DNA from: Chitinophagaceae bacterium
GTDB lineage: Bacteria > Bacteroidota > Bacteroidia > Chitinophagales > Chitinophagaceae
Length of the DNA: 64,000 nt
Assembly: GCA_019752045.1 (NCBI GenBank)
Contig: JAIEMP010000008.1
Span: forward strand, 72,676 to 136,675
Direction: 5' to 3'
Part shown: one piece after another, positions 3,562 through 46,540 of the stretch
Layout of the letters: every line of letters starts with the position of its first letter
Numbering within the stretch: the first letter of the stretch is position 1
Program-made: the position numbers and the translations under genes
Notes under the pieces: generated by a model
The model's database searches: none
What the model was told of the DNA's origin: nothing
Seen by the model: the letters and a program-made list of their open reading frames with translations, nothing else

Positions 3562-4440
3562 CTAAATCAACACACTAAAATCATCTGCATCTTTCAAGAA
3601 AGGAAGTTTGGTTCTTACTTCCTGCAGTTTTTCTTTTGAAAGTGTTATGGTATGGATATCTTCTTCATGTTCTTTTTCATACAGCACATCGCCCATGGCA
3701 TCAATCACTGTGCTGTTGCCGCTGTGATAAATATCATTGCCATCTTTTCCCGTTCTGTTTACGCCAATTACATAGCATTGATTTTCGATGGCTCTCGCAT
3801 TGAGTAAAGTTTTCCATGCATGAATTCTTCGCTCGGGCCAGTTGGCAACATAGATCAATACATCATATTCGGGAGCAAGCTCCTGAGCGGAGTCGAAGGG
3901 CATGCTTTCAGCATCGAGCGAAGTCGAGATGCGTTGAGGAGTTTGTCTGGCCCAAACAGGAAACCGCAGATCATAACAGATCTGCAGATTAATCTTCCAT
4001 CCATTCACTGAAGCAATTAATCGTTTAGTGCCTGCTGTATAATGATAGTGTTCACCGGCGTATGCAAACAGGTGTCGTTTATCATACACTCCGTACTGAC
4101 CGTTTGGTAACATCCAGATGAGTCGGTTGAAGAAAACCTCTCCCCCCGCCCTCTCCGAAGGAGAGGGAGCCATAACAGCTTCACGCATCATCACACTTCC
4201 TGTAAGAATTATTTTTTTTTCAGCTGCTATGCGTTTCATCCATGCAATGGTTGGCCCGCTCATATCTTCTGCAAGTGTTTCGGGTTTCATGCTGAAGCCG
4301 GTGCTGAACATTTCGGGCAACACAATAATCTGTGTGAGATGTTGAATGCTGTTGATCTTTTGTTCCAGCATCTGCAGGTTGGCTGTAACATCTTCCCAAT
4401 GCAATTGGGTTTGAATAAGCGTGAAGGTTAAATGACTCAT
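3562..4440 (-). CDS. Nitrilase-family amidohydrolase (omega-amidase YafV-like) carrying two in-frame repeat insertions
   Basis: Catalytic triad motifs LPEMFSTGF, YDKRHLF, ICYDLRFP; ANWP and ARAIEN; likely start ATG 4440. Confidence 0.92.
   Translation of the reverse strand: MSHLTFTLIQTQLHWEDVTANLQMLEQKINSIQHLTQIIVLPEMFSTGFSMKPETLAEDMSGPTIAWMKRIAAEKKIILTGSVMMREAVMAPSPSERAGGEVFFNRLIWMLPNGQYGVYDKRHLFAYAGEHYHYTAGTKRLIASVNGWKINLQICYDLRFPVWARQTPQRISTSLDAESMPFDSAQELAPEYDVLIYVANWPERRIHAWKTLLNARAIENQCYVIGVNRTGKDGNDIYHSGNSTVIDAMGDVLYEKEHEEDIHTITLSKEKLQEVRTKLPFLKDADDFSVLI
3882..3932. repeat. Two tandem REP-like palindromic units inside the amidohydrolase CDS
   Basis: cctgagcggagtcgaagggc and gcatcgagcgaagtcgagatgc share a GAGCG(G/A)AGTCGA core; they encode the extra peptide ISTSLDAESMPFDSAQE. 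Confidence 0.7.
4137..4170. repeat. GC-rich hairpin repeat inside the amidohydrolase CDS
   Basis: ccctctcc-gaa-ggagaggg perfect hairpin with a purine tail on the minus strand; encodes APSPSERAGGE; related copy at 61074-61110. Confidence 0.75.
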
Positions 4441-4462
4441 GCCGTAAAGTTCGTAAAAATCT

Positions 4463-5434
4463 TCAGCGAAAGCGAACGGCAACTGCAAAGGCGCCAAACA
4501 CTTCCATTTTCTTAATCATGCTGGCCGCTTCTCTTTGCTTAAATGTATAAACAATAGATAAGGAAGTTTTTTTTCCTGAAATAACAGCGCCTGTTTTTAT
4601 AAGGTACAAAAATGGATTGAGGGGTGAAGTATACAATCCTTTATCTGATCTCAATAATCCACCTTGTACAGTTGCATTGTAAGCCTGTACCATTAAAACC
4701 GGTTCAAGAAAAATAAACGCTTCCGTTTTATGTTGTCCTTTTTCATTTGCTTGACCCATTCGTCCGCTCCAGTAAGCGGTGTGTTCTTCAGCTTCTTTTA
4801 AACCGGCCTTTAATAAAAAACCTGCAGAGGCATTGGTAAATGTATTTCCAACAATGGCTTTTCCAACAGCATGCAGTGATACATGCGCAGGTTGGTTATG
4901 GAGCAATGAACGGTAATACTGCACTGATGCATTGATACCCACTTCGTTTTGCAACTGATACTCCCATCCGTAAATTTTATACAGCATCACCAGTTTGTGA
5001 TAACCCATTTGTATTTGTTTTCCTAAAGCAGCAGGGCCCAGTATGCCAATCACTGCATCGAACTGTAATACATCATTGTTACGGTAAATTTTTGTTTGTC
5101 CATATGATGCATACAGCCAACCTGCAAATGGTCGGTCCAATGTTTTAAGTACAGTATCTAATGAACGTCTGTTGTAGTAAGGATTAAAAATCATTTGTCC
5201 CGCTTCTGTACGGTGAATGGTTTTTAGTACACGGTCGTTTGCCGGGTTGTTTGAAAGCCAGTTAAAGCGGATAAAAAACCCATTGGAATAATAACGGTCT
5301 TTGAGTGTAAAATTATAATTATCGTTTTCTGTTATGATGGAAAGCTCTTTGTTATATACAGACGAATCCTGTGCATACAATAGTGCCGAAGTAAAAAGGA
5401 ATAAACAAAATATGAATATAGCTTTGATGCTCAT
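4463..5434 (-). CDS. Lipid A deacylase LpxR family (DUF2219) outer-membrane protein
   Basis: Signal peptide, ENDNY...DRYYSNG, GQMIFNP, DRPFAGWLY, GWEYQL motifs; C-terminal VRFR. Confidence 0.85.
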   Translation of the reverse strand: MSIKAIFIFCLFLFTSALLYAQDSSVYNKELSIITENDNYNFTLKDRYYSNGFFIRFNWLSNNPANDRVLKTIHRTEAGQMIFNPYYNRRSLDTVLKTLDRPFAGWLYASYGQTKIYRNNDVLQFDAVIGILGPAALGKQIQMGYHKLVMLYKIYGWEYQLQNEVGINASVQYYRSLLHNQPAHVSLHAVGKAIVGNTFTNASAGFLLKAGLKEAEEHTAYWSGRMGQANEKGQHKTEAFIFLEPVLMVQAYNATVQGGLLRSDKGLYTSPLNPFLYLIKTGAVISGKKTSLSIVYTFKQREAASMIKKMEVFGAFAVAVRFR

Positions 5435-20669: not shown

Positions 20670-20715
20670 CGGTGTCTGTTCATCCGCCAAAAGGCGGATG
20701 AACAGACAACAAAAA
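20670..20715. repeat. Palindromic repeat copy 1 (downstream of the Fic gene)
   Basis: cggtgtctgttcatccgcc-aaaa-ggcggatgaacagacaacaaaaa. Confidence 0.85.
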
Positions 20716-21501
20716 TTATTGAATGATAACAGACTCCGGCAGCATTTTTAAAAACAACATCGCTTCTTCGTAATTCAGTTGATCATATTCCACGCCAAGC
20801 AGACGAATATGTTTGTAATAAGTTTGATGCAGACTGTAGTAATGTTTTTCTGATTGCACAAACCAGGCTTTTTCTCCCAGTTTTTGTGCAAGGAACCATT
20901 TTTCCAGTAGTCTTCCTGTTCTGCCATTGCCATCTTCAAAGGGATGAATTTTAATAAAAACCAAATGCAGCATAGAAGCAAAAAAGAATATTTCTTCAAA
21001 ACTTAAACGGACTGAAAGCAATGTTTCAATATCTGCATGAAGCTTTTGCATTTCAGTATTTAACTGATCAGGAGCAGCCGCAACGTATTCAATTTTTCCA
21101 TCCTTGGTTACAACAAACATCTTTCCTTTTCTGAAAGCTCCCTGTTGTAGCGGCTGCAAAATATTTTTCGTTAAAAGACCATGAGCCTGCAGTAAGGTTT
21201 GAGCGTTGAGTTTGTTTTGCTGTGCAAACAAATAGGCATCATAGAGATCGTCAATCTTCTTTGTATAATCTGGCTGATAATGTACACCCAGCCTTTTATG
21301 TTTGATAAACGAATCAAGGTCTATCTCTTCACCTTCAATTTTGGATGAAAACACAGCAGAAACAGAAGTATAAAAACTAAAATTTTCAATACTGAGTTCA
21401 CTATCCTGTAATGCTTCAAATCGTTGTTGCAGCAACGGATCAAACTCAATTATGTATTGAGGCAGTAAACTGATTGGTAGTATTTGAAGAGGTTCTGTCA
21501 T
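20716..21501 (-). CDS. Fic-domain protein (class II, intrinsic inhibitory motif)
   Basis: Active-site HPFEDGNGRTGR; N-terminal SSKIEG matches (S/T)xxxE(G/N). Confidence 0.92.
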   Translation of the reverse strand: MTEPLQILPISLLPQYIIEFDPLLQQRFEALQDSELSIENFSFYTSVSAVFSSKIEGEEIDLDSFIKHKRLGVHYQPDYTKKIDDLYDAYLFAQQNKLNAQTLLQAHGLLTKNILQPLQQGAFRKGKMFVVTKDGKIEYVAAAPDQLNTEMQKLHADIETLLSVRLSFEEIFFFASMLHLVFIKIHPFEDGNGRTGRLLEKWFLAQKLGEKAWFVQSEKHYYSLHQTYYKHIRLLGVEYDQLNYEEAMLFLKMLPESVIIQ

Positions 21502-21554
21502 TTACTGAAGCAGAACAAAGATAAAGGAGTATTTGAATGGGGTTCATGTGATTT

Positions 21555-21600
21555 CGGTGTCTGTTCATCCACCATTCGGAGGATGAACAGACAACAAAAA
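21555..21600. repeat. Palindromic repeat copy 2 (upstream of the Fic gene)
   Basis: cggtgtctgttcatcc-accattcgga-ggatgaacagacaacaaaaa, same orientation as copy 1. Confidence 0.85.
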
Positions 21601-43302: not shown

Positions 43303-43310
43303 TACCTTTG
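43303..43310 (+). promoter_or_regulatory. Bacteroidota -7 promoter element
   Basis: TACCTTTG upstream of the FAH gene. Confidence 0.65.
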
Positions 43311-43344: not shown

Positions 43345-44349
43345 ATGAAATTGATCTCTTACTTAAAAGATGAACACGAACAGCTAGCAGTTTTTCACAA
43401 CGGACTTGTGTATGATATGGATACGCTGCATCCTGATTTGCCCACCAGTATGAATATGTTTTTGCAATACTGGGATGAATATCTTGAACTTGCAAAAGCC
43501 AGTTTAAAAGCTGTACAGGAAGGGCGTTTAATGCCGGGTAATGCTGTGCCGATTGACGATCTGCAATTACTGGCTCCTGTTCCCATGCCGCCCAGTTGCA
43601 GAGATGGATATGCGTTTCGCCAGCATGTGGAAGCTGCACGAAGAAATCGCAAAGTGGATATGATTGCCGAATTTGATCAATACCCGATTTTTTATTTTAC
43701 CAATCATCACAGTATACAAGGTCCCGGCGATGTGCGTTGCATGCCTGATCATTTTGAAAAGCTCGATTTTGAATTGGAAGTTGCCATTGTGATTTGTAAA
43801 CATGGCCGCAACATCCGTGCAGAAGAAGCGGATGCATACATTGGCGGTTTGATGATCATGAACGATATGAGTGCACGTCGTTTGCAGATGGAAGAGATGT
43901 TGCTGAATCTTGGTCCAGCTAAGGGGAAAGATTTTTCAACAGCGATTGGTCCGTGGTTGGTAACACTTGATGAACTGCAGGAGTTTGTTGTACCCGCAAA
44001 AGAAAATCATGTGGGATTAAACTGGAATTTAAATATGAAGTGTAAGGTAAATGCTGTGCAAGTGAGTAGAGGCAATGTTTCTGAAATGAACTGGACCTTT
44101 GCTGAAATTATTGAACGTGCCAGTTATGGTGTTGATCTGTATCCCGGTGATGTGATTGGAAGTGGTACTGTTGGCACAGGTTGTTTTTTAGAATTAAATG
44201 GAACAGCCAAACTAAACGATCCCAATTATACAGAACAATGGTTAAAAGAGGGTGATGTGGTTGAAATGGAAATTGATGGCTTGGGCAGATTGAGTAATAC
44301 AATGGTGAGCGAGGGGGATGATTTTTCGATTTTGGGGAGGAAGAAATAG
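43345..44349 (+). CDS. Fumarylacetoacetate hydrolase family protein
   Basis: RDGYAFRQH, LDFELE, MNDMSAR, KGKDF, GDVIGSGTVG. Confidence 0.92.
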   Translation: MKLISYLKDEHEQLAVFHNGLVYDMDTLHPDLPTSMNMFLQYWDEYLELAKASLKAVQEGRLMPGNAVPIDDLQLLAPVPMPPSCRDGYAFRQHVEAARRNRKVDMIAEFDQYPIFYFTNHHSIQGPGDVRCMPDHFEKLDFELEVAIVICKHGRNIRAEEADAYIGGLMIMNDMSARRLQMEEMLLNLGPAKGKDFSTAIGPWLVTLDELQEFVVPAKENHVGLNWNLNMKCKVNAVQVSRGNVSEMNWTFAEIIERASYGVDLYPGDVIGSGTVGTGCFLELNGTAKLNDPNYTEQWLKEGDVVEMEIDGLGRLSNTMVSEGDDFSILGRKK

Positions 44350-44835
44350 TTGGCGCAGAGAACAAGAGATGCAGAGTTGAACGCAGAGTATTGAAAAAAA
44401 TTTATTAATATGAATAAGGAACGCCTTAACCAAATAGGTTCGGTTATTCTGGATTCAGCAATAACAGTTCACAGGGAATTAGGTCCGGGCTTGTTGGAAT
44501 CTGCTTATCAACTTGCTTTAAAGAGAGAATTGGAGCTGCGGGGATTACATGTGTTGGCCAATGTACCTGTGCAATTAATCTATAAAGATCAGCCACTGGG
44601 GAAAGCATATGAAATTGATCTATTGGTAGAAGGAGAAGTGGTGATTGAAAACAAATCGGTTGAGTTAGTGAATCCGGTTTTTCAGTTTCAGGTAATTACC
44701 TATTTAAAGCTTTACAATAAACAACTCGGTTATCTCATTAACTTTAATGTGCCGCTTTTAAAAGATGGATTTAAACGAATCGTTCACAATTTTTAACTCT
44801 GCGCATCACTCTTTTTCTCTTGTTCTCTGCGCCAA
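44350..44835 (+). mobile_element. GxxExxY cassette with perfect 20-bp terminal inverted repeats
   Basis: ttggcgcagagaacaagaga (44350-44369) and tctcttgttctctgcgccaa (44816-44835) span exactly from the upstream TAG to the downstream ATG. Confidence 0.75.
44410..44796 (+). CDS. GxxExxY protein (PD-(D/E)XK-like nuclease fold)
   Basis: GPGLLESAY motif; IDLLVEGEVVIENK; QVITYLK; GYLINFN. Confidence 0.93.
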   Translation: MNKERLNQIGSVILDSAITVHRELGPGLLESAYQLALKRELELRGLHVLANVPVQLIYKDQPLGKAYEIDLLVEGEVVIENKSVELVNPVFQFQVITYLKLYNKQLGYLINFNVPLLKDGFKRIVHNF

Positions 44836-45729
44836 ATGAATCATATGATCATTGATCTCACAGACATCAACCCCATGCAAAAACAACAATGGCTGCAACA
44901 TGCTGTTGCGCCACGCCCCGTTTGTTTTGCATCTACAATAGATAAAGAAGGAAATGTAAACCTGAGTCCGTTCAGTTTTTTCAATTTGTTTTCATCGAAT
45001 CCACCCATCGTTGTGTTTTCGCCTGCACGCAGGGTAAGAGATAATACAACCAAGCATACATTGCAGAATGTATTAGATGTTCCTGAAGTTGTGATCAACA
45101 TTGTTGATTATGAAATGGTGCAGCAGGTAAGTTTAGCCAGTTGCGAATTCCCAAAAGGCACCAATGAATTTATAAAAGCAGGATTTACAGAAGAAGCTGC
45201 CACATTGATAAAACCACCGATGGTAAAGGAAAGCAAAGTGAAGATGGAATGTAAAGTGATTGAAGTAAAACCATTGGGAACAGAAGGTGGTGCAGGTAAC
45301 CTGGTTATTTGTGAAGTGCTGCGTATGCATGTAGATGAAAGTATTTTGAATACAGAAGGAACAATGATTGATCAGCGCAGGCTGCAGCATATTGCACGCC
45401 TCGGCGGCGATTGGTATTGCAAAGTAGATGAACACAGTTTGTTTCATGTAGCCAAACCAAATACGCAACTCGGTATTGGCATTGATGCCATACCTGAAAC
45501 CATCCGCAACAGTAACATTCTCACGGGTAACAATCTGGGTCAACTGGCCAATGTGCATGATTACCCTGTTGTGGATGCTGCATTTTATGATGAACGATTA
45601 AAAAACATCATCCAATATTTTTCCATCAATCCCGATGAGATGGATAAAGAATTGCATCGTTATGCAAAAGAGCTGCTCGATGCAGGGAAAGTGAACGAAG
45701 CATGGCAGGTATTACTGGCCGACAGCTAA
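44836..45729 (+). CDS. Flavin reductase family protein
   Basis: VAPRPVCFAST, NLSPFSFFN, KHTLQN, ARLGGDWY. Confidence 0.9.
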   Translation: MNHMIIDLTDINPMQKQQWLQHAVAPRPVCFASTIDKEGNVNLSPFSFFNLFSSNPPIVVFSPARRVRDNTTKHTLQNVLDVPEVVINIVDYEMVQQVSLASCEFPKGTNEFIKAGFTEEAATLIKPPMVKESKVKMECKVIEVKPLGTEGGAGNLVICEVLRMHVDESILNTEGTMIDQRRLQHIARLGGDWYCKVDEHSLFHVAKPNTQLGIGIDAIPETIRNSNILTGNNLGQLANVHDYPVVDAAFYDERLKNIIQYFSINPDEMDKELHRYAKELLDAGKVNEAWQVLLADS

Positions 45730-45772: not shown

Positions 45773-46540
45773 ATGCTTCAGCCCAACGGTACATGGATCA
45801 GTTATTTCCTCGTGATAGGTTTGCGGTATATTGTTATTGCCGGACTGGCTTTTTTGATCTGGTATATTTTTTTGAAGAACAGGATTTCGTTCAAAAAAAT
45901 TCAACATCGATTTCCTGTAAATAAAGATTACCAACGGGAAATTTTCTTTTCACTTTGCACCATGTTTCTGTTTGCATTTGTGCCCTGGTTTTTTCTAAGT
46001 CATGCAGAAATAAGAAAGCACACAACCTTTTACTACAACATCAACCAACACGGGCTATTGTATTTCTGGCTGGCTTTTCCTTTGATGTTGCTGATACATG
46101 ATACCTATTTTTACTGGATTCATCGGCTGATGCATCATCCAAAACTGTTTCGTGTATTTCATCTCATTCATCACAAGAGTACCAATCCATCTCCATGGGC
46201 CGCCTTTTCATTTCACCCGTTAGAAGCAATTCTGGAAGTAGGAATTCTTGTTGTACTCATTTATACCATTCCAGTAACCAAAGCACATTTGTTCTTTTTC
46301 TTTTTGTTTCAAATGTTTTATAATGTGTATGGCCATTTGGGTTGGGAATTGTTTCCAAAGAATTTTCAACGCACATGGATTGGCAAATGGATCAACACAT
46401 CGGTGAATCACAATCAACATCATCAATACTTTAAAGGAAACTATGGTTTGTATTTTCTGTTTTGGGATCGTTTGATGGGAACCATCCGAAGCGATTATGA
46501 TGAGCAGTACGATGAAGTGAAAAACAGAAAAGTCGCTTAA
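45773..46540 (+). CDS. Sterol desaturase / fatty-acid hydroxylase family protein
   Basis: His boxes HRLMHH, HLIHH, HLG, HNQHH; NYGLY. Confidence 0.92.
   Translation: MLQPNGTWISYFLVIGLRYIVIAGLAFLIWYIFLKNRISFKKIQHRFPVNKDYQREIFFSLCTMFLFAFVPWFFLSHAEIRKHTTFYYNINQHGLLYFWLAFPLMLLIHDTYFYWIHRLMHHPKLFRVFHLIHHKSTNPSPWAAFSFHPLEAILEVGILVVLIYTIPVTKAHLFFFFLFQMFYNVYGHLGWELFPKNFQRTWIGKWINTSVNHNQHHQYFKGNYGLYFLFWDRLMGTIRSDYDEQYDEVKNRKVA

Follow-up and report, generated by a model that had tools for sequence, protein, structure and literature searches.

How does a small nuclease gene framed by inverted repeats come to lie between two co-oriented genes of an operon, and what keeps it there? The question arises from a 64-kb stretch of DNA from a Chitinophagaceae bacterium (hereafter the window, whose numbering is used throughout), in which positions 44350–44835 consist of inverted repeats around one small nuclease ORF, set between a fumarylacetoacetate-hydrolase-family (FAH) gene and a flavin reductase gene. 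The initial annotation had read this segment as a minimal selfish element, a nuclease plus its inverted repeats, that inserts between operon genes. The features of the locus are as follows.

43303–43310, + strand: candidate Bacteroidetes-type −7 promoter box TACCTTTG, of putative function, 5′ of the FAH gene
43345–44349, + strand: upstream host gene, FAH family, 334 aa, with its TAG stop at 44347–44349
44350–44389, + strand: left arm, made of purine-rich units (TTGG terminus, CGCAGAG 44354–44360, AGAGA 44365–44369, TGCAGAG 44370–44376, CGCAGAG 44382–44388)
44350–44369, no strand assigned: outer 20 bp of the left arm, perfect complement of 44816–44835
44390–44409, + strand: A/T-rich leader from the left arm to the ATG, without a promoter box
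44410–44796, + strand: GxxExxY protein gene, 128 aa plus TAA, minimal PD-(D/E)XK nuclease fold (PF13366, TIGR04256)
44796–44835, + strand: right arm, pyrimidine-rich complement of the left (CTCTGCG 44797–44803, CTCTGCG 44825–44831, CCAA terminus)
44845–45729, + strand: downstream host gene, flavin-reductase-like; the start conserved among relatives is 44845, with a further in-frame ATG next to the arm at 44836
45773–46540, + strand: co-oriented fatty-acid-hydroxylase-family gene, probably the last member of the FAH/reductase transcription unit

The two arms are 40 nt each and 83% complementary, the complementarity being perfect over their outer 20 nt. This outer 20-mer, with up to three mismatches allowed, occurs at just two sites in the 64 kb, versus 0 expected from 100 shuffles; a chance inverted repeat is thereby ruled out, the more so since 26 of 32 cassettes of this type have an inverted-repeat score above that of every one of 320 shuffles. 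The GCAGAG/CTCTGC sub-repeats described at the outset were recovered in both arms, one of them (44797–44803) adjoining the GxxExxY stop codon, as were the boundaries: the FAH stop ends at 44349, the left arm starts at 44350 and the right arm ends at 44835. The perfect outer 20 bp, although real in the window, is lineage-specific: the left arm is more divergent in loci L011, L012 and L014, and locus L007, whose GxxExxY protein is identical to that of the window, nevertheless carries two tandem left arms, one window-like and one L011-like. The spacer between left arm and ATG (44390–44409 in the window) shrinks to just 0–4 nt in many relatives.

The claim that the repeats fill the exact gap between a stop and a start codon holds in part. 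The in-frame ATG at 44836 does abut the right arm, but the reductase start in relatives is the codon matching 44845 (MIIDL...), and identical contigs are annotated with either position. Since the arms of relatives lie 0–8 nt after the upstream stop and ~5–15 nt before the downstream start, exact gap filling is peculiar to the window strain.

Neither flank of the window cassette shows a target-site duplication, in agreement with the first reading of the locus, and the same is true of the class: over 52 cassettes, the direct-repeat score of the flanks stayed near the permuted control (best z ~2.4), compared with z ~5.7 for inverted-repeat extension. In L011 and L012 the two flanks resemble each other in being A-rich; this low-complexity similarity was not counted as a duplication. 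The cassette contains no transposase or recombinase, its neighbours are housekeeping genes, and no integrase was found among cassette neighbours. The segment thus resembles transposon/MITE pairs in its terminal inverted repeats with several sub-sites per end, in its gene-less derivatives and in its presence/absence polymorphism (both described below), but differs from them in lacking a target-site duplication and a DDE, HUH, serine or tyrosine recombinase. We know of no 128-aa hydrolytic nuclease that carries out strand transfer by itself. An integron cassette is likewise a poor match: here arms lie on both sides, in place of a single 3′ attC, and no integrase is nearby.

The ORF had been named a GxxExxY gene, and profile searches bear this out: its product matches PF13366 (PDDEXK_3; 126.6 bits for a cut-off of 22, E = 8e-37) and TIGR04256 (GxxExxY protein; 128.4 bits for a cut-off of 35, E = 1.6e-37), which are its sole Pfam and NCBIfam matches. 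The motif reads G27-L-L-E30-S-A-Y33, with E30 and Y33 invariant and G27 present in at least 90% of 65 diverse members. E30, D70, E80 and K82 are all invariant in 65 sequences 40–56% identical to the window protein; D70, E80 and K82, together with E30 of helix 1, are the predicted PD-(D/E)XK catalytic residues. The gene is under strong purifying selection (Ka/Ks 0.03–0.07 across saturated synonymous divergence).

Structure prediction was sensitive to the depth of the alignment. A first AlphaFold model, built on sequences 77–96% identical to the query, reached a pLDDT of 63, gave meaningless Foldseek output and was discarded. With a diverse alignment, the AF2 model reached a pLDDT of 96.7 and displayed the topology H-H-E-E-E-H-E-E, which includes the alpha-beta-beta-beta-alpha-beta core fold of the PD-(D/E)XK superfamily. 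Nearly all Foldseek matches of this model are PD-(D/E)XK nucleases, the top ones being the Cas4 protein SSO0001, alkaline and lambda exonucleases, MGME1, an archaeal (tRNA-)splicing endonuclease and RecB-type nucleases; for SSO0001 the probability was 1.00 and the TM score 0.48–0.52, with weak E-values (6e-3 at best). No PDB chain is a relative of the window protein at the sequence level, profile search included. The model suggests a minimal Cas4/RecB-like PD-(D/E)XK nuclease: the best structural matches lie in the Cas4/RecB/lambda-exonuclease clade, whereas the GxxExxY protein consists of the 128-aa core alone, without an Fe-S cluster domain. A GxxExxY HMM of a published pipeline also matched a cas4 gene (PMC8934634).

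We then turned to the same joint in relatives, using the FAH orthologues of ~80 Chitinophagaceae genomes/species (84 FAH loci). The joint is empty, with an overlapping stop and start (TGATG or ATGA), at 12 of the 84 loci, in 12 species. Short spacers occupy 13 loci, 7 of them forming strong hairpins (z ≤ −2.3). A GxxExxY gene is present at 22 loci and a frameshifted one at 2; a cassette encoding a four-helix-bundle protein of the 23S_rRNA_IVP family is found at 5 and a remnant of one at 1, and other genes occupy the joint at 11. Locus L028 exemplifies the empty joint, and the complete genome of Lacibacter sp. MH-610 (NZ_CP116002.1, locus L029) one filled by the cassette. These states switch between relatives at FAH protein distances of 0.05–0.08, with homology stopping exactly at the joint; the relative with the most similar FAH (L024) has the arms alone, with no gene. 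The ~30 cassettes at the joint all lie on the operon strand. As the occurrence of empty joints in 12 species and the switching between close relatives show, the cassette was inserted into an originally overlapping stop/start joint of the co-transcribed FAH/flavin-reductase pair, and the proposal of an insertion between operon genes was correct. Metagenome DNA contigs from four runs were all of the filled form, none having an empty joint, which says nothing about rare empty alleles because contigs drop rare variants.

The initial annotation had set this insertion against fixation of the gene at the locus throughout the family, and the relatives show something of both. GxxExxY homologues 58–100% identical to the window protein sit nearly all at the FAH|reductase joint, their identity tracking host divergence, yet empty and replaced states exist. 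For this reason the window lineage is, judging by sequence comparison, a long-term and mostly vertical resident that is occasionally lost, decayed or replaced, and no frequent jumper.

A lineage tied to one joint is what would be seen if the gene were a site-specific homing endonuclease gene, whose product cuts the FAH|reductase joint where it is empty, so that repair on a filled allele as template brings the cassette in and the arms are incidental. PD-(D/E)XK homing endonucleases exist, and the presence/absence polymorphism with degenerate copies at this joint, where intact, frameshifted, remnant and empty states coexist, resembles the gain–decay–loss cycle of homing endonuclease genes. However, the identities of cassette and host genes fall together, as in vertical descent, and a Ka/Ks this low over saturated synonymous divergence would be unusual for a cyclically decaying homing gene. 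Homing moreover leaves unexplained the strong, family-specific conservation of the arms documented below, and the joint is also used by cassettes that encode no nuclease and by hairpins without a gene. We therefore give little credence to homing into the empty joint.

The check for flanking inverted repeats at other GxxExxY genes gave a positive answer. Such cassettes occur in Bacteroidia, Cytophagia and Alphaproteobacteria and on many metagenome contigs, in four bacterial classes altogether; examples are Bacteroides (between radA and a gene for an FAD protein), Bernardetia, Sphingomonas (between fabD and fabG) and dozens of metagenome loci. They share one design: the cassette is co-oriented behind its upstream gene (in 24 of 26 unrelated loci), and the ORF is tightly bracketed by arms of about three CRCRRAG units, the left arm ending 0–4 nt before the ATG in many cases. 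No rRNA genes were found near 20 other GxxExxY loci. Gene-less hairpins with CRCRRAG units occur in relatives at the FAH|reductase joint, in a few other places and as tandem arrays; at locus L116, a GxxExxY gene is flanked on both sides by arrays of 84-nt hairpin units, of 2.8 and 3.1 copies. Within the 64-kb window the cassette is single copy and no gene-less arm copies lie elsewhere, and among the loci examined, no genome had near-identical copies at more than one site. Our literature searches on GxxExxY, PDDEXK_3, S23p/four-helix-bundle proteins and STRR heptamers yielded no description of these cassettes, which the TIGRFAMs/InterPro curators' notes may mention; the window cassette is one of a widespread class of repeat-bounded cassettes that has apparently gone undescribed.

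Strong purifying selection on a gene with an invariant active site, its long vertical residence at the joint and the very large size of its family (13,763 clusters at 50% identity, E ≤ 1e-3) would also fit a small nuclease domesticated for repair, defence or RNA turnover, without present mobility, whose arms serve as a cis-regulatory device for expression or transcript stability. Such a gene would hardly be expected to be lost frequently, to decay into pseudogenes or to give way to an unrelated cassette at its joint, nor to be inserted in unrelated housekeeping operons of different phyla, always with arms, and the arrays of gene-less arm hairpins also speak against this explanation. Regarding defence, no PADLOC model matches the window protein; PHROG gave no meaningful match and GenBank phages no phage record. 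A purely host-serving role is in our view distinctly unlikely.

The arms themselves are the most informative part of the cassette. In GxxExxY cassettes they consist of about three short tandem units of consensus CRCRRAG, inverted between left and right, and the outer termini follow the class consensus TT(A/C)ACC...GGT(T/G)AA (TTGGC...GCCAA in the window). The orientation of the units is nearly absolute: upstream of 27 GxxExxY cassettes, CRCRRAG was counted 46 times in sense and once in antisense, and in the reverse complement of the downstream flanks 45 times in sense and never in antisense. In 23S_rRNA_IVP cassettes the unit is absent (0 occurrences), and GTTAYGRG units are found instead (20 upstream and 12 downstream). 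Unit type is thus matched to protein family within the GxxExxY cassettes; as a general rule this was rejected, since the units of the four-helix-bundle cassettes vary with the taxon.

In close relatives, the arms are far better conserved than synonymous sites: the right arm is identical to that of L011 at 38 of 40 positions despite a Ks of 1.18, and over both L011 and L012, with Ks above 1.1, its identity is 93–95%. The two arms also co-vary. In the comparison of cassettes, 78% of the arm cells are paired versus 66% in shuffles, a value reached by none of 500 shuffles; cells altered on both sides number 123 versus 54, and the covariation score is 0.374 versus 0.09–0.16 with the partners slid. 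Arm mismatches show no RNA wobble bias (88 G.U versus 93 A.C), and the unit sequence is kept across phyla far beyond the need for pairing, while the spacers between units are often unpaired. The last two observations point to a constraint acting at the level of DNA or of protein recognition; the missing G.U bias is weak evidence in this respect, as many of the mismatches are in spacers and many of the cassettes share ancestry, and the co-variation could alternatively reflect RNA pairing.

How the cassette is expressed bears on this alternative. The + strand was scanned for promoter boxes with TANNTTTG: the box TACCTTTG at 43303–43310 is the sole one before 45816, so that there is none inside the cassette, and the genes downstream of it also lack a box of their own. 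Neither a sigma-70-like promoter or terminator nor an intrinsic-terminator-like site (a short GC-rich hairpin followed by a T run) was found on the + strand between 43200 and 45000. The cassette hence appears to be promoterless and to be transcribed by read-through from the FAH promoter. Four or five RNA-like contigs, short and of low depth, fall in the region; one covers 44375–44592, and another (44727–44883) spans the boundary of right arm and reductase gene without a break. They show no processed ends or cassette-less joints, at a coverage far too low to judge.

Transcribed in this way, the segment could be an RNA-level element akin to an rRNA intervening sequence, an extension of the loop-out idea of the initial annotation. 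A ~40-bp stem in the mRNA would then either hold the reductase start next to the FAH stop, preserving translational coupling, or be cleaved by RNase III or the GxxExxY protein itself to release the cassette RNA, the arms being conserved as a processing site. The stem is indeed predicted to close, and none of 100 shuffles of the region folds as well (z −3.9); the arms lie close to the neighbouring stop and start in most cassettes, the empty joint is a translationally coupled overlap, both arms co-vary, and the fold matches of the protein include an archaeal tRNA-splicing endonuclease. Against this, arm mismatches display no excess of G.U, the units are conserved across phyla beyond what pairing needs, with spacers often unpaired, and no Rfam family matches the region even at E values up to 10. 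The gene of L116 sits between hairpin units and not inside a loop, and the contig that crosses from the right arm into the reductase gene is uncut, within the limits of coverage just given. On balance, an element that works primarily as RNA is a serious but less probable explanation.

It draws further support from the 23S_rRNA_IVP cassettes found at the same joint in relatives, since this is the protein family of genuine rRNA intervening sequences. Apart from their GTTAYGRG arms, these cassettes are identical in design to the GxxExxY ones. Similar four-helix-bundle cassettes on Nostoc and Geminocystis plasmids have arms made of inverted runs of the heptamers AGTCAGG/A and GGGAAAA. Since the four-helix-bundle cassettes share the design and encode no nuclease, a nuclease is not required for the cassette architecture. 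The description of the segment as a minimal selfish element accordingly captures a repeat-bounded insert but leaves too much out: cassettes without a nuclease and hairpins without a gene are found at the same joint, and the protein is under strong purifying selection.

Known ORF-bearing 23S rRNA intervening sequences encode a protein of the S23p family (PF05635) within a stem, and are excised by RNase III (PMC4990558, PMC11270868); they are patchily distributed, for instance in Leptospira, Coxiella and Brucella, and are transcribed within the host transcript (PMC4990558). The window cassette resembles them in its size of a few hundred bases, in its complementary ends able to form a long stem around one promoterless ORF, and in that the joint of its relatives holds cassettes of that very protein family. 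It differs from them in lying between two protein-coding genes and not in an rRNA helix, in encoding a PD-(D/E)XK nuclease, and in having arms of tandem CRCRRAG units conserved across phyla without a wobble bias. The heptamer arms of the cyanobacterial plasmids have the same design as the GTTAYGRG arms and recall the STRR heptamers of heterocystous cyanobacteria; STRRs, however, are described as intergenic tandem repeats, the window arms being of CRCRRAG and not of cyanobacterial heptamers, and we found no link between STRRs and bracketed ORFs in the searchable literature.

The other close parallel is the REPIN/RAYT system, in which a gene is flanked by inverted hairpin repeats that also exist as gene-less copies, and which persists vertically for long periods under purifying selection (PMC3116915; bioRxiv 10.1101/2021.07.10.451892). 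The GxxExxY cassettes share the inverted hairpin-forming repeats around a gene and the mostly vertical persistence under purifying selection. Gene-less hairpins of their units were seen in relatives in the places named above, with none elsewhere in the 64-kb window, and may correspond to the dispersed copies of REPINs. Unlike a RAYT, the window protein is not an IS200-like HUH/Y1 tyrosine transposase but a PD-(D/E)XK protein, and its gene is promoterless and co-oriented within an operon.

The reading that we prefer, and to which we give roughly even chances, is that 44350–44835 is a promoterless, inverted-repeat-bounded nuclease cassette, inserted in an operon, whose nuclease acts on its own arms. 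The data show that the cassette was inserted and lies in the orientation of the operon, that the joint is polymorphic, that the arms are constrained in sequence and co-vary, and that selection maintains the active site of the nuclease; the action of the nuclease on its arms is probable, and is the step we infer. In such a scheme, the GxxExxY nuclease, probably as a dimer, would recognize the repeat units of its own arms as DNA, and cleavage-stimulated recombination or copying would thereby maintain or propagate the arm-bounded unit. The system would be an autonomous/non-autonomous pair of the RAYT/REPIN type, housed like an ORF-bearing 23S rRNA intervening sequence. Within the polycistronic transcript, pairing of the arms would also give a long stem with the FAH stop and the reductase start close together at its foot, which may limit polar damage, probably as a by-product and not as a selected function. 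Several findings count against this reading: near-identical copies at separate sites of a genome, which would mark recent mobility, were not seen among the loci examined; homologues at least 58% identical are almost exclusively at this one joint; the Ka/Ks is as low as that of a housekeeping gene, which fits a host-useful resident equally well; and four-helix-bundle cassettes of the same design, with units that vary between taxa, do without a nuclease.

A bolder version holds that the GxxExxY nuclease and the CRCRRAG hairpins form a self-propagating system of a hitherto undescribed kind. A dimer would cut a gene-less hairpin, in which the adjoining arms make an interrupted palindrome, and repair from a filled copy through the ~40-bp arms would insert a copy of the gene in the hairpin loop (‘hairpin homing’); or the protein would remove the cassette from the mRNA much as introns are removed in archaeal bulge-helix-bulge splicing. 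We regard it as speculative and rather unlikely. If true, either route would be a new mechanism of mobility or processing for a family of >13,000 protein clusters, and would unite operon-joint cassettes with the intervening sequences of rRNA and the STRR repeats of cyanobacteria as a single phenomenon.

GxxExxY (PF13366) and 23S_rRNA_IVP proteins, two very large families, both occur as promoterless cassettes bounded by tandem-unit repeats in tight operon joints. This explains many orphan small ORFs and hairpins annotated in conserved operons such as fabD–fabG. A single joint that cycles between empty, hairpin-only, nuclease, decayed and four-helix-bundle states provides a testable frame for what these proteins act on, for the spread of rRNA intervening sequences and STRR-type repeats, and for how an insertion persists in a translationally coupled gene pair over long evolutionary periods.

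The GxxExxY ORF lies between two genes that match PF01557 and PF01613 in a domain search. The initial annotation had described it as bracketed by inverted repeats, and this observation was confirmed as regards coordinates, arms and family match:

43303, plus strand: Bacteroidetes-type -7 box TACCTTTG, ahead of the FAH gene (motif scan)
43345-44349: FAH-family ORF, stop codon TAG, neighbour from the PF01557/PF01613 pair
44350-44389: left arm TTGGCGCAGAGAACAAGAGATGCAGAGTTGAACGCAGAGT, directly after the FAH TAG
Between left arm and cassette ORF: A/T-rich leader of 20 nt
44410-44796: GxxExxY ORF, 128 codons (PF13366 PDDEXK_3 and TIGR04256)
44796-44835: right arm ACTCTGCGCATCACTCTTTTTCTCTTGTTCTCTGCGCCAA, then ATGAATCATATGATC..., the flavin-reductase-like gene

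The arms, as delimited by a repeat finder in the window, are 40 nt long and 83% complementary, with perfect pairing of the outer 20 nt. The outer 20-mer (up to three mismatches) has no further copy within the 64 kb, where none is expected, and the window holds only this GxxExxY gene, whose G+C content (38%) matches that of the window (40%). Motif scans found no other -7 box on the plus strand until 45816 and no terminator-like site on the plus strand around the cassette. Since the sole box lies ahead of FAH and no terminator-like site follows, the FAH gene, the cassette ORF and the reductase gene look like a single transcription unit. The orientation of the cassette and its lack of promoter box or terminator show, at the sequence level, that its expression would depend on host transcription.

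The FAH-reductase joint was surveyed by an FAH alignment scan with one genome per species, which yielded 80 Chitinophagaceae loci (L numbers), the state of each joint being the content of the interval from the FAH stop to the reductase start.

States of the FAH-reductase joint
Empty (0-22 nt): 12 species, six with a TGATG or ATGA stop/start overlap
Short spacer (54-154 nt): 13 species, seven with strong hairpins (z <= -2.3) of tandem units
Intact GxxExxY gene: 22 species, window included
Frameshifted or truncated GxxExxY gene: 2 species (L062, L070)
Four-helix-bundle cassette (480-570 nt; arms GTTAYGRG...CYCRTAAC; protein of 130-148 aa): 5 species
Remnant of a four-helix-bundle cassette: 1 species (L041, 280 nt)
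Other genes: 11 species (e.g. a DUF2807 protein, opposite strand)
Unclassifiable: 19 species (contig ends, or reductase gene not adjacent)

Empty sites, which the initial annotation had proposed to look for in relatives, thus exist in 12 species; a TGATG or ATGA overlap is the signature of a translationally coupled gene pair. The states are interspersed on the FAH distance tree, as seen for L029 (GxxExxY) and L030 (four-helix-bundle; distance 0.054), L031 and L032 (0.072), the window and L024 (hairpin only; 0.075), L053 (empty) and L070 (pseudogene; 0.078), and L025 (four-helix-bundle) and L028 (empty; 0.081). In closely related pairs that differ in state, DNA homology ends exactly at the joint. 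L024, which has the most similar FAH gene (93%), carries a gene-less hairpin, CCACAGAGATACAAAGAGCACAGAG-ATT-CTCTGCGTACTCTGTGCTCTCTGTG. Throughout the 80 loci, searched over 8 kb each, GxxExxY and four-helix-bundle matches all lie at the joint and on the operon strand; the L025 four-helix-bundle protein, the only one of the five scanned, is PF05635 23S_rRNA_IVP (E 8.6e-27). The empty sites, the interspersed states and the homology break show that the cassette segment was inserted where a coupled stop and start overlapped and that the joint has been repeatedly gained, lost and re-occupied.

Further arrangements were noted at the joint. L058 and L061 are separated by an FAH tree distance of 0.003 (DNA identity about 92%), yet the former has a 55-nt spacer and the latter an insert of 624 nt. 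The insert contains an ORF of 172 aa lacking a Pfam match, lies between the halves of a short inverted repeat (TAGCAGCC...GGCTGCTA) and represents a third cassette type at this hot spot. In L038 and L072, the interval (1.7-2.2 kb) holds a candidate gene for a serine beta-lactamase-type esterase (363 aa) together with a distant GxxExxY gene and a solo CGCGGAG/CGCAGAG hairpin, so that several insertions appear stacked there.

In a metagenome scan, homologues with at least 58% identity were nearly all located at the FAH-reductase joint, the few others being L116, L121, L153, L159 and L018 (P0066, at rhaM|Ldh_2); below about 56% identity, homologues occupied other gene contexts. Cassette identity declines roughly in parallel with FAH and reductase identity, and the ORF has a Ka/Ks of 0.03-0.07 (Ks 1.2-1.3 for L011 and L012 against the window). 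These three observations indicate that the cassette lineage has long descended mostly vertically and been strongly constrained by purifying selection, with occasional decay, loss or replacement. Classical homing would find its target in the empty joints; we consider it very improbable. A domesticated nuclease of the host, with the stem as a cis-regulatory device, might also be kept under such selection, and we consider this unlikely. The initial interpretation was supported in part: insertion stood, but the cassette is an old, mostly vertical resident of the joint, and fixation of the gene there across the family, counted in advance against the reading, thus applies in part.

The arms are constrained as well. 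At Ks > 1.1, the right arm is identical to that of the window at 38/40 (L011) and 37/40 (L012) positions, and the left arm at 32-34/41 (L011, L012 and L014). An alignment of 47 cassettes of the lineage shows a conserved ACC-GCAGAGAAC-ANGAG-(N3)-CAGAG-(N4-5)-CGCAGAG with freer spacers. Arm symmetry was tested in a 40-cassette alignment covering the 20 outermost nt of each arm, with 500 shuffles: pairing reached 78% of cells vs 66% in shuffles, and cells changed on both sides numbered 123 vs 54 (0/500 shuffles reached either value), the covariation score being 0.374, as opposed to 0.171 in shuffles and 0.09-0.16 with slid partners. Lineage-specific termini also agree between arms (TTGGC/GCCAA, TTCACC/GGTGAA, CCAACC/GGTTGG and TTCAAC/GTTGAA).

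Paired arms could also serve RNA-level processing like that of an intervening sequence, or a coupling device. Helices under selection as RNA usually have markedly more G.U; however, the arm mismatches of 69 cassettes, many of which are related, which weakens the inference, comprised 88 G.U in the mRNA vs 93 of the mirror type A.C (p = 0.77). This, together with sequence conservation exceeding pairing, makes the RNA-level reading rather doubtful and points to recognition of the units of both arms at the DNA level, as symmetric protein sites or through inter-arm copying. No target-site duplication was detected at the cassettes.

The position of the arms varies among close relatives. The identical GxxExxY protein occurs on at least 24 contigs, invariably in the order FAH-GxxExxY-reductase, and homologues with 81-94% identity occupy the joint too, even where the outer gene order varies. 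All have the arms, but not flush with the codons, contrary to the initial view that the repeats fill the exact gap between stop and start: L011 reads TAG+AGGCTCA+arm on the left and arm+AGGAATAAA+ATG on the right, and L012 and L014 are similar. In the relatives, the reductase ORF begins with the equivalent of the codon at window position 44845 (MIIDL...), which makes the ATG at 44836 an unlikely native start. L007, whose GxxExxY protein is identical to the window's, has two tandem left arms 36 nt apart (1104-1238), the outer being that of the window and the inner, which adjoins the ORF, resembling that of L011; this suggests replacement or duplication of an arm within the species. The perfect 20-bp repeats are thus present in the window but would reflect recent left-arm turnover rather than a fixed property. 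Separately, L022 carries an extra gene-less arm pair (TTAATCGCTGAGAAAAGCAGATGCATAGATGG ... CTCTCAGCGTAAACTTATTTTCTCTTTTTCTCAGCGTTAA; 4391-4544) downstream of GxxExxY, before a reductase gene that appears truncated or rearranged.

As to the protein, G25, E30, Y33, D70, E80 and K82, which include the helix-1 glutamate and the D...ExK triad, are invariant in 65 family members 40-56% identical to the query. The family comprises 13,763 clusters at 50% identity (E <= 1e-3; 3,294 at E <= 1e-10). PDB chains gave no match by sequence or profile, and PADLOC, PHROGs and GenBank phages gave none for the protein. An AlphaFold2 model built from a diverse alignment (pLDDT 96.7) retrieved with Foldseek almost exclusively PD-(D/E)XK nucleases, with weak E-values (6e-3 at best): Cas4 SSO0001 (probability 1.00, TM 0.48-0.52), alkaline and lambda exonucleases, MGME1, Bax1 and an archaeal splicing endonuclease. 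Three proteins of the representative library (P0121, P0122 and P0130; 276-295 aa) have two tandem GxxExxY domains, the second without the D...ExK residues, and may be pseudo-dimers; these fusions suggest that the working unit is a dimer.

The same architecture recurs in distant taxa, where tblastn against plasmid records located GxxExxY genes with a co-oriented housekeeping gene on either side:

Bacteroides finegoldii: radA / FAD-dependent protein, arms CACCACAGAGGACGCAGAGGACACGGAGG ... CTCTGTGACCTCTGTGTCCTCTGTGGTG
Bernardetia: adenine deaminase / mannose-1-phosphate guanylyltransferase, arms AACACAGAGATAAGGAGAACCACAGAGA ... TCTCTGTGTTTCTCTGTAACTCTGTGTT
Sphingomonas: fabD / fabG, arms TTCACGCGAAGGCGCGAGGACGCGAAG ... 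TCGCGTCTTCGCGGCTTCGCGTGAA

Dozens of metagenome loci are alike, with units such as CACAAAG, CGCGGCG and ACACAGCG and termini TT(A/C)ACC...GGT(T/G)AA. Flanking inverted repeats, suggested at the outset as a test of other GxxExxY loci, were borne out, flank complementarity exceeding the maximum of 320 shuffles in 26/32 cassettes. Taken together, the 110-nt stretches preceding 27 GxxExxY genes contain 46 sense copies of CRCRRAG and a single antisense one; for the downstream flank, read as its reverse complement, the ratio is 45:0 (background 0.41 per kb). The five four-helix-bundle cassettes have no CRCRRAG but contain 20 + 12 GTTAYGRG units. The upstream neighbour is co-oriented at 24/26 independent loci and the downstream one at 15/24. 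Many cassettes have no space for a promoter, as 0-4 nt separate the left arm from the ATG and the right arm begins at the stop codon.

Four-helix-bundle cassettes outside Chitinophagaceae are of like design, with units AAGGTTY (Riemerella), GGGAAAA (Nostoc sp. ATCC 53789 and Geminocystis) and AGTCAGG/A (Nostoc punctiforme), the last ones being STRR-like heptamers. 23S_rRNA_IVP genes bracketed by inverted runs of 7-8-nt tandem units were seen in L025, L027, L030, L031, L074 and L041 (joint) and in L188-L191, and such units in cyanobacterial plasmids resemble classical STRR heptamers. Gene-less forms comprise solo hairpins and arrays. L116 (2244-3247) has a GxxExxY gene that shares 78% identity with that of the window and is surrounded by tandemly arrayed gene-less hairpins. 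Their 84-nt unit, present in 2.8 copies upstream of the gene and 3.1 downstream, has CGCAGAG in its arms and the loop ATGGTTTTTC, which is conserved; L121 carries related units. The related metagenome contigs L178 (711-788) and L179 (688-765) have a Flavo-1 RNA (RF01705) about 1.7 kb upstream of their cassette, probably by coincidence.

The window also contains a Fic-domain gene flanked by two direct copies of a palindromic hairpin of about 44 nt, one on each side (20671-21600); the arrangement may represent a further type of hairpin-bracketed gene or a REP-like terminator pair:

20671-20714: hairpin copy GGTGTCTGTTCATCCGCC-AAAA-GGCGGATGAACAGACAACAAAA
20716-21501, minus strand: Fic-domain gene, motif HPFEDGNGRTGR
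21556-21600: hairpin copy GGTGTCTGTTCATCCACC-ATTC-GGAGGATGAACAGACAACAAAAAA

The arms co-vary, gene-less hairpins exist and the joint turns over; the protein and the arm sequences are maintained by selection. We infer, with about an even chance of being right, that the predicted nuclease would recognise the repeated units within its own arms and that the arm-bounded unit would be maintained or propagated through cleavage-stimulated recombination or copying. The stem in the mRNA, at whose foot the FAH stop and the reductase start lie, would be a side effect that is tolerated or slightly beneficial.

The nearest described systems are ORF-bearing 23S rRNA intervening sequences (PMC4990558, PMC11270868) and REPIN/RAYT systems (PMC3116915). 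The window element lacks a defining feature of each, as it lies outside rRNA and has no HUH transposase; unlike transposons, it has neither target-site duplication nor transposase, and it fails the features of integron cassettes. The proposed relation between nuclease and arm hairpins is comparable to that of RAYT with REPINs, or of an autonomous element with MITEs. Full-text literature searches found GxxExxY mentioned rarely and in no case in connection with these cassettes, and no link was found there between four-helix-bundle or STRR repeats and bracketed operon cassettes. Within that scope, with the defining features missing and no published description, the element may be classed as repeat-bounded and intervening-sequence-like or REPIN-like. 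The result is broader than the original finding, as it concerns a whole class of cassettes and hairpins, with a documented hot spot that has at least four states and with arm units of the nuclease-bearing type conserved across phyla.
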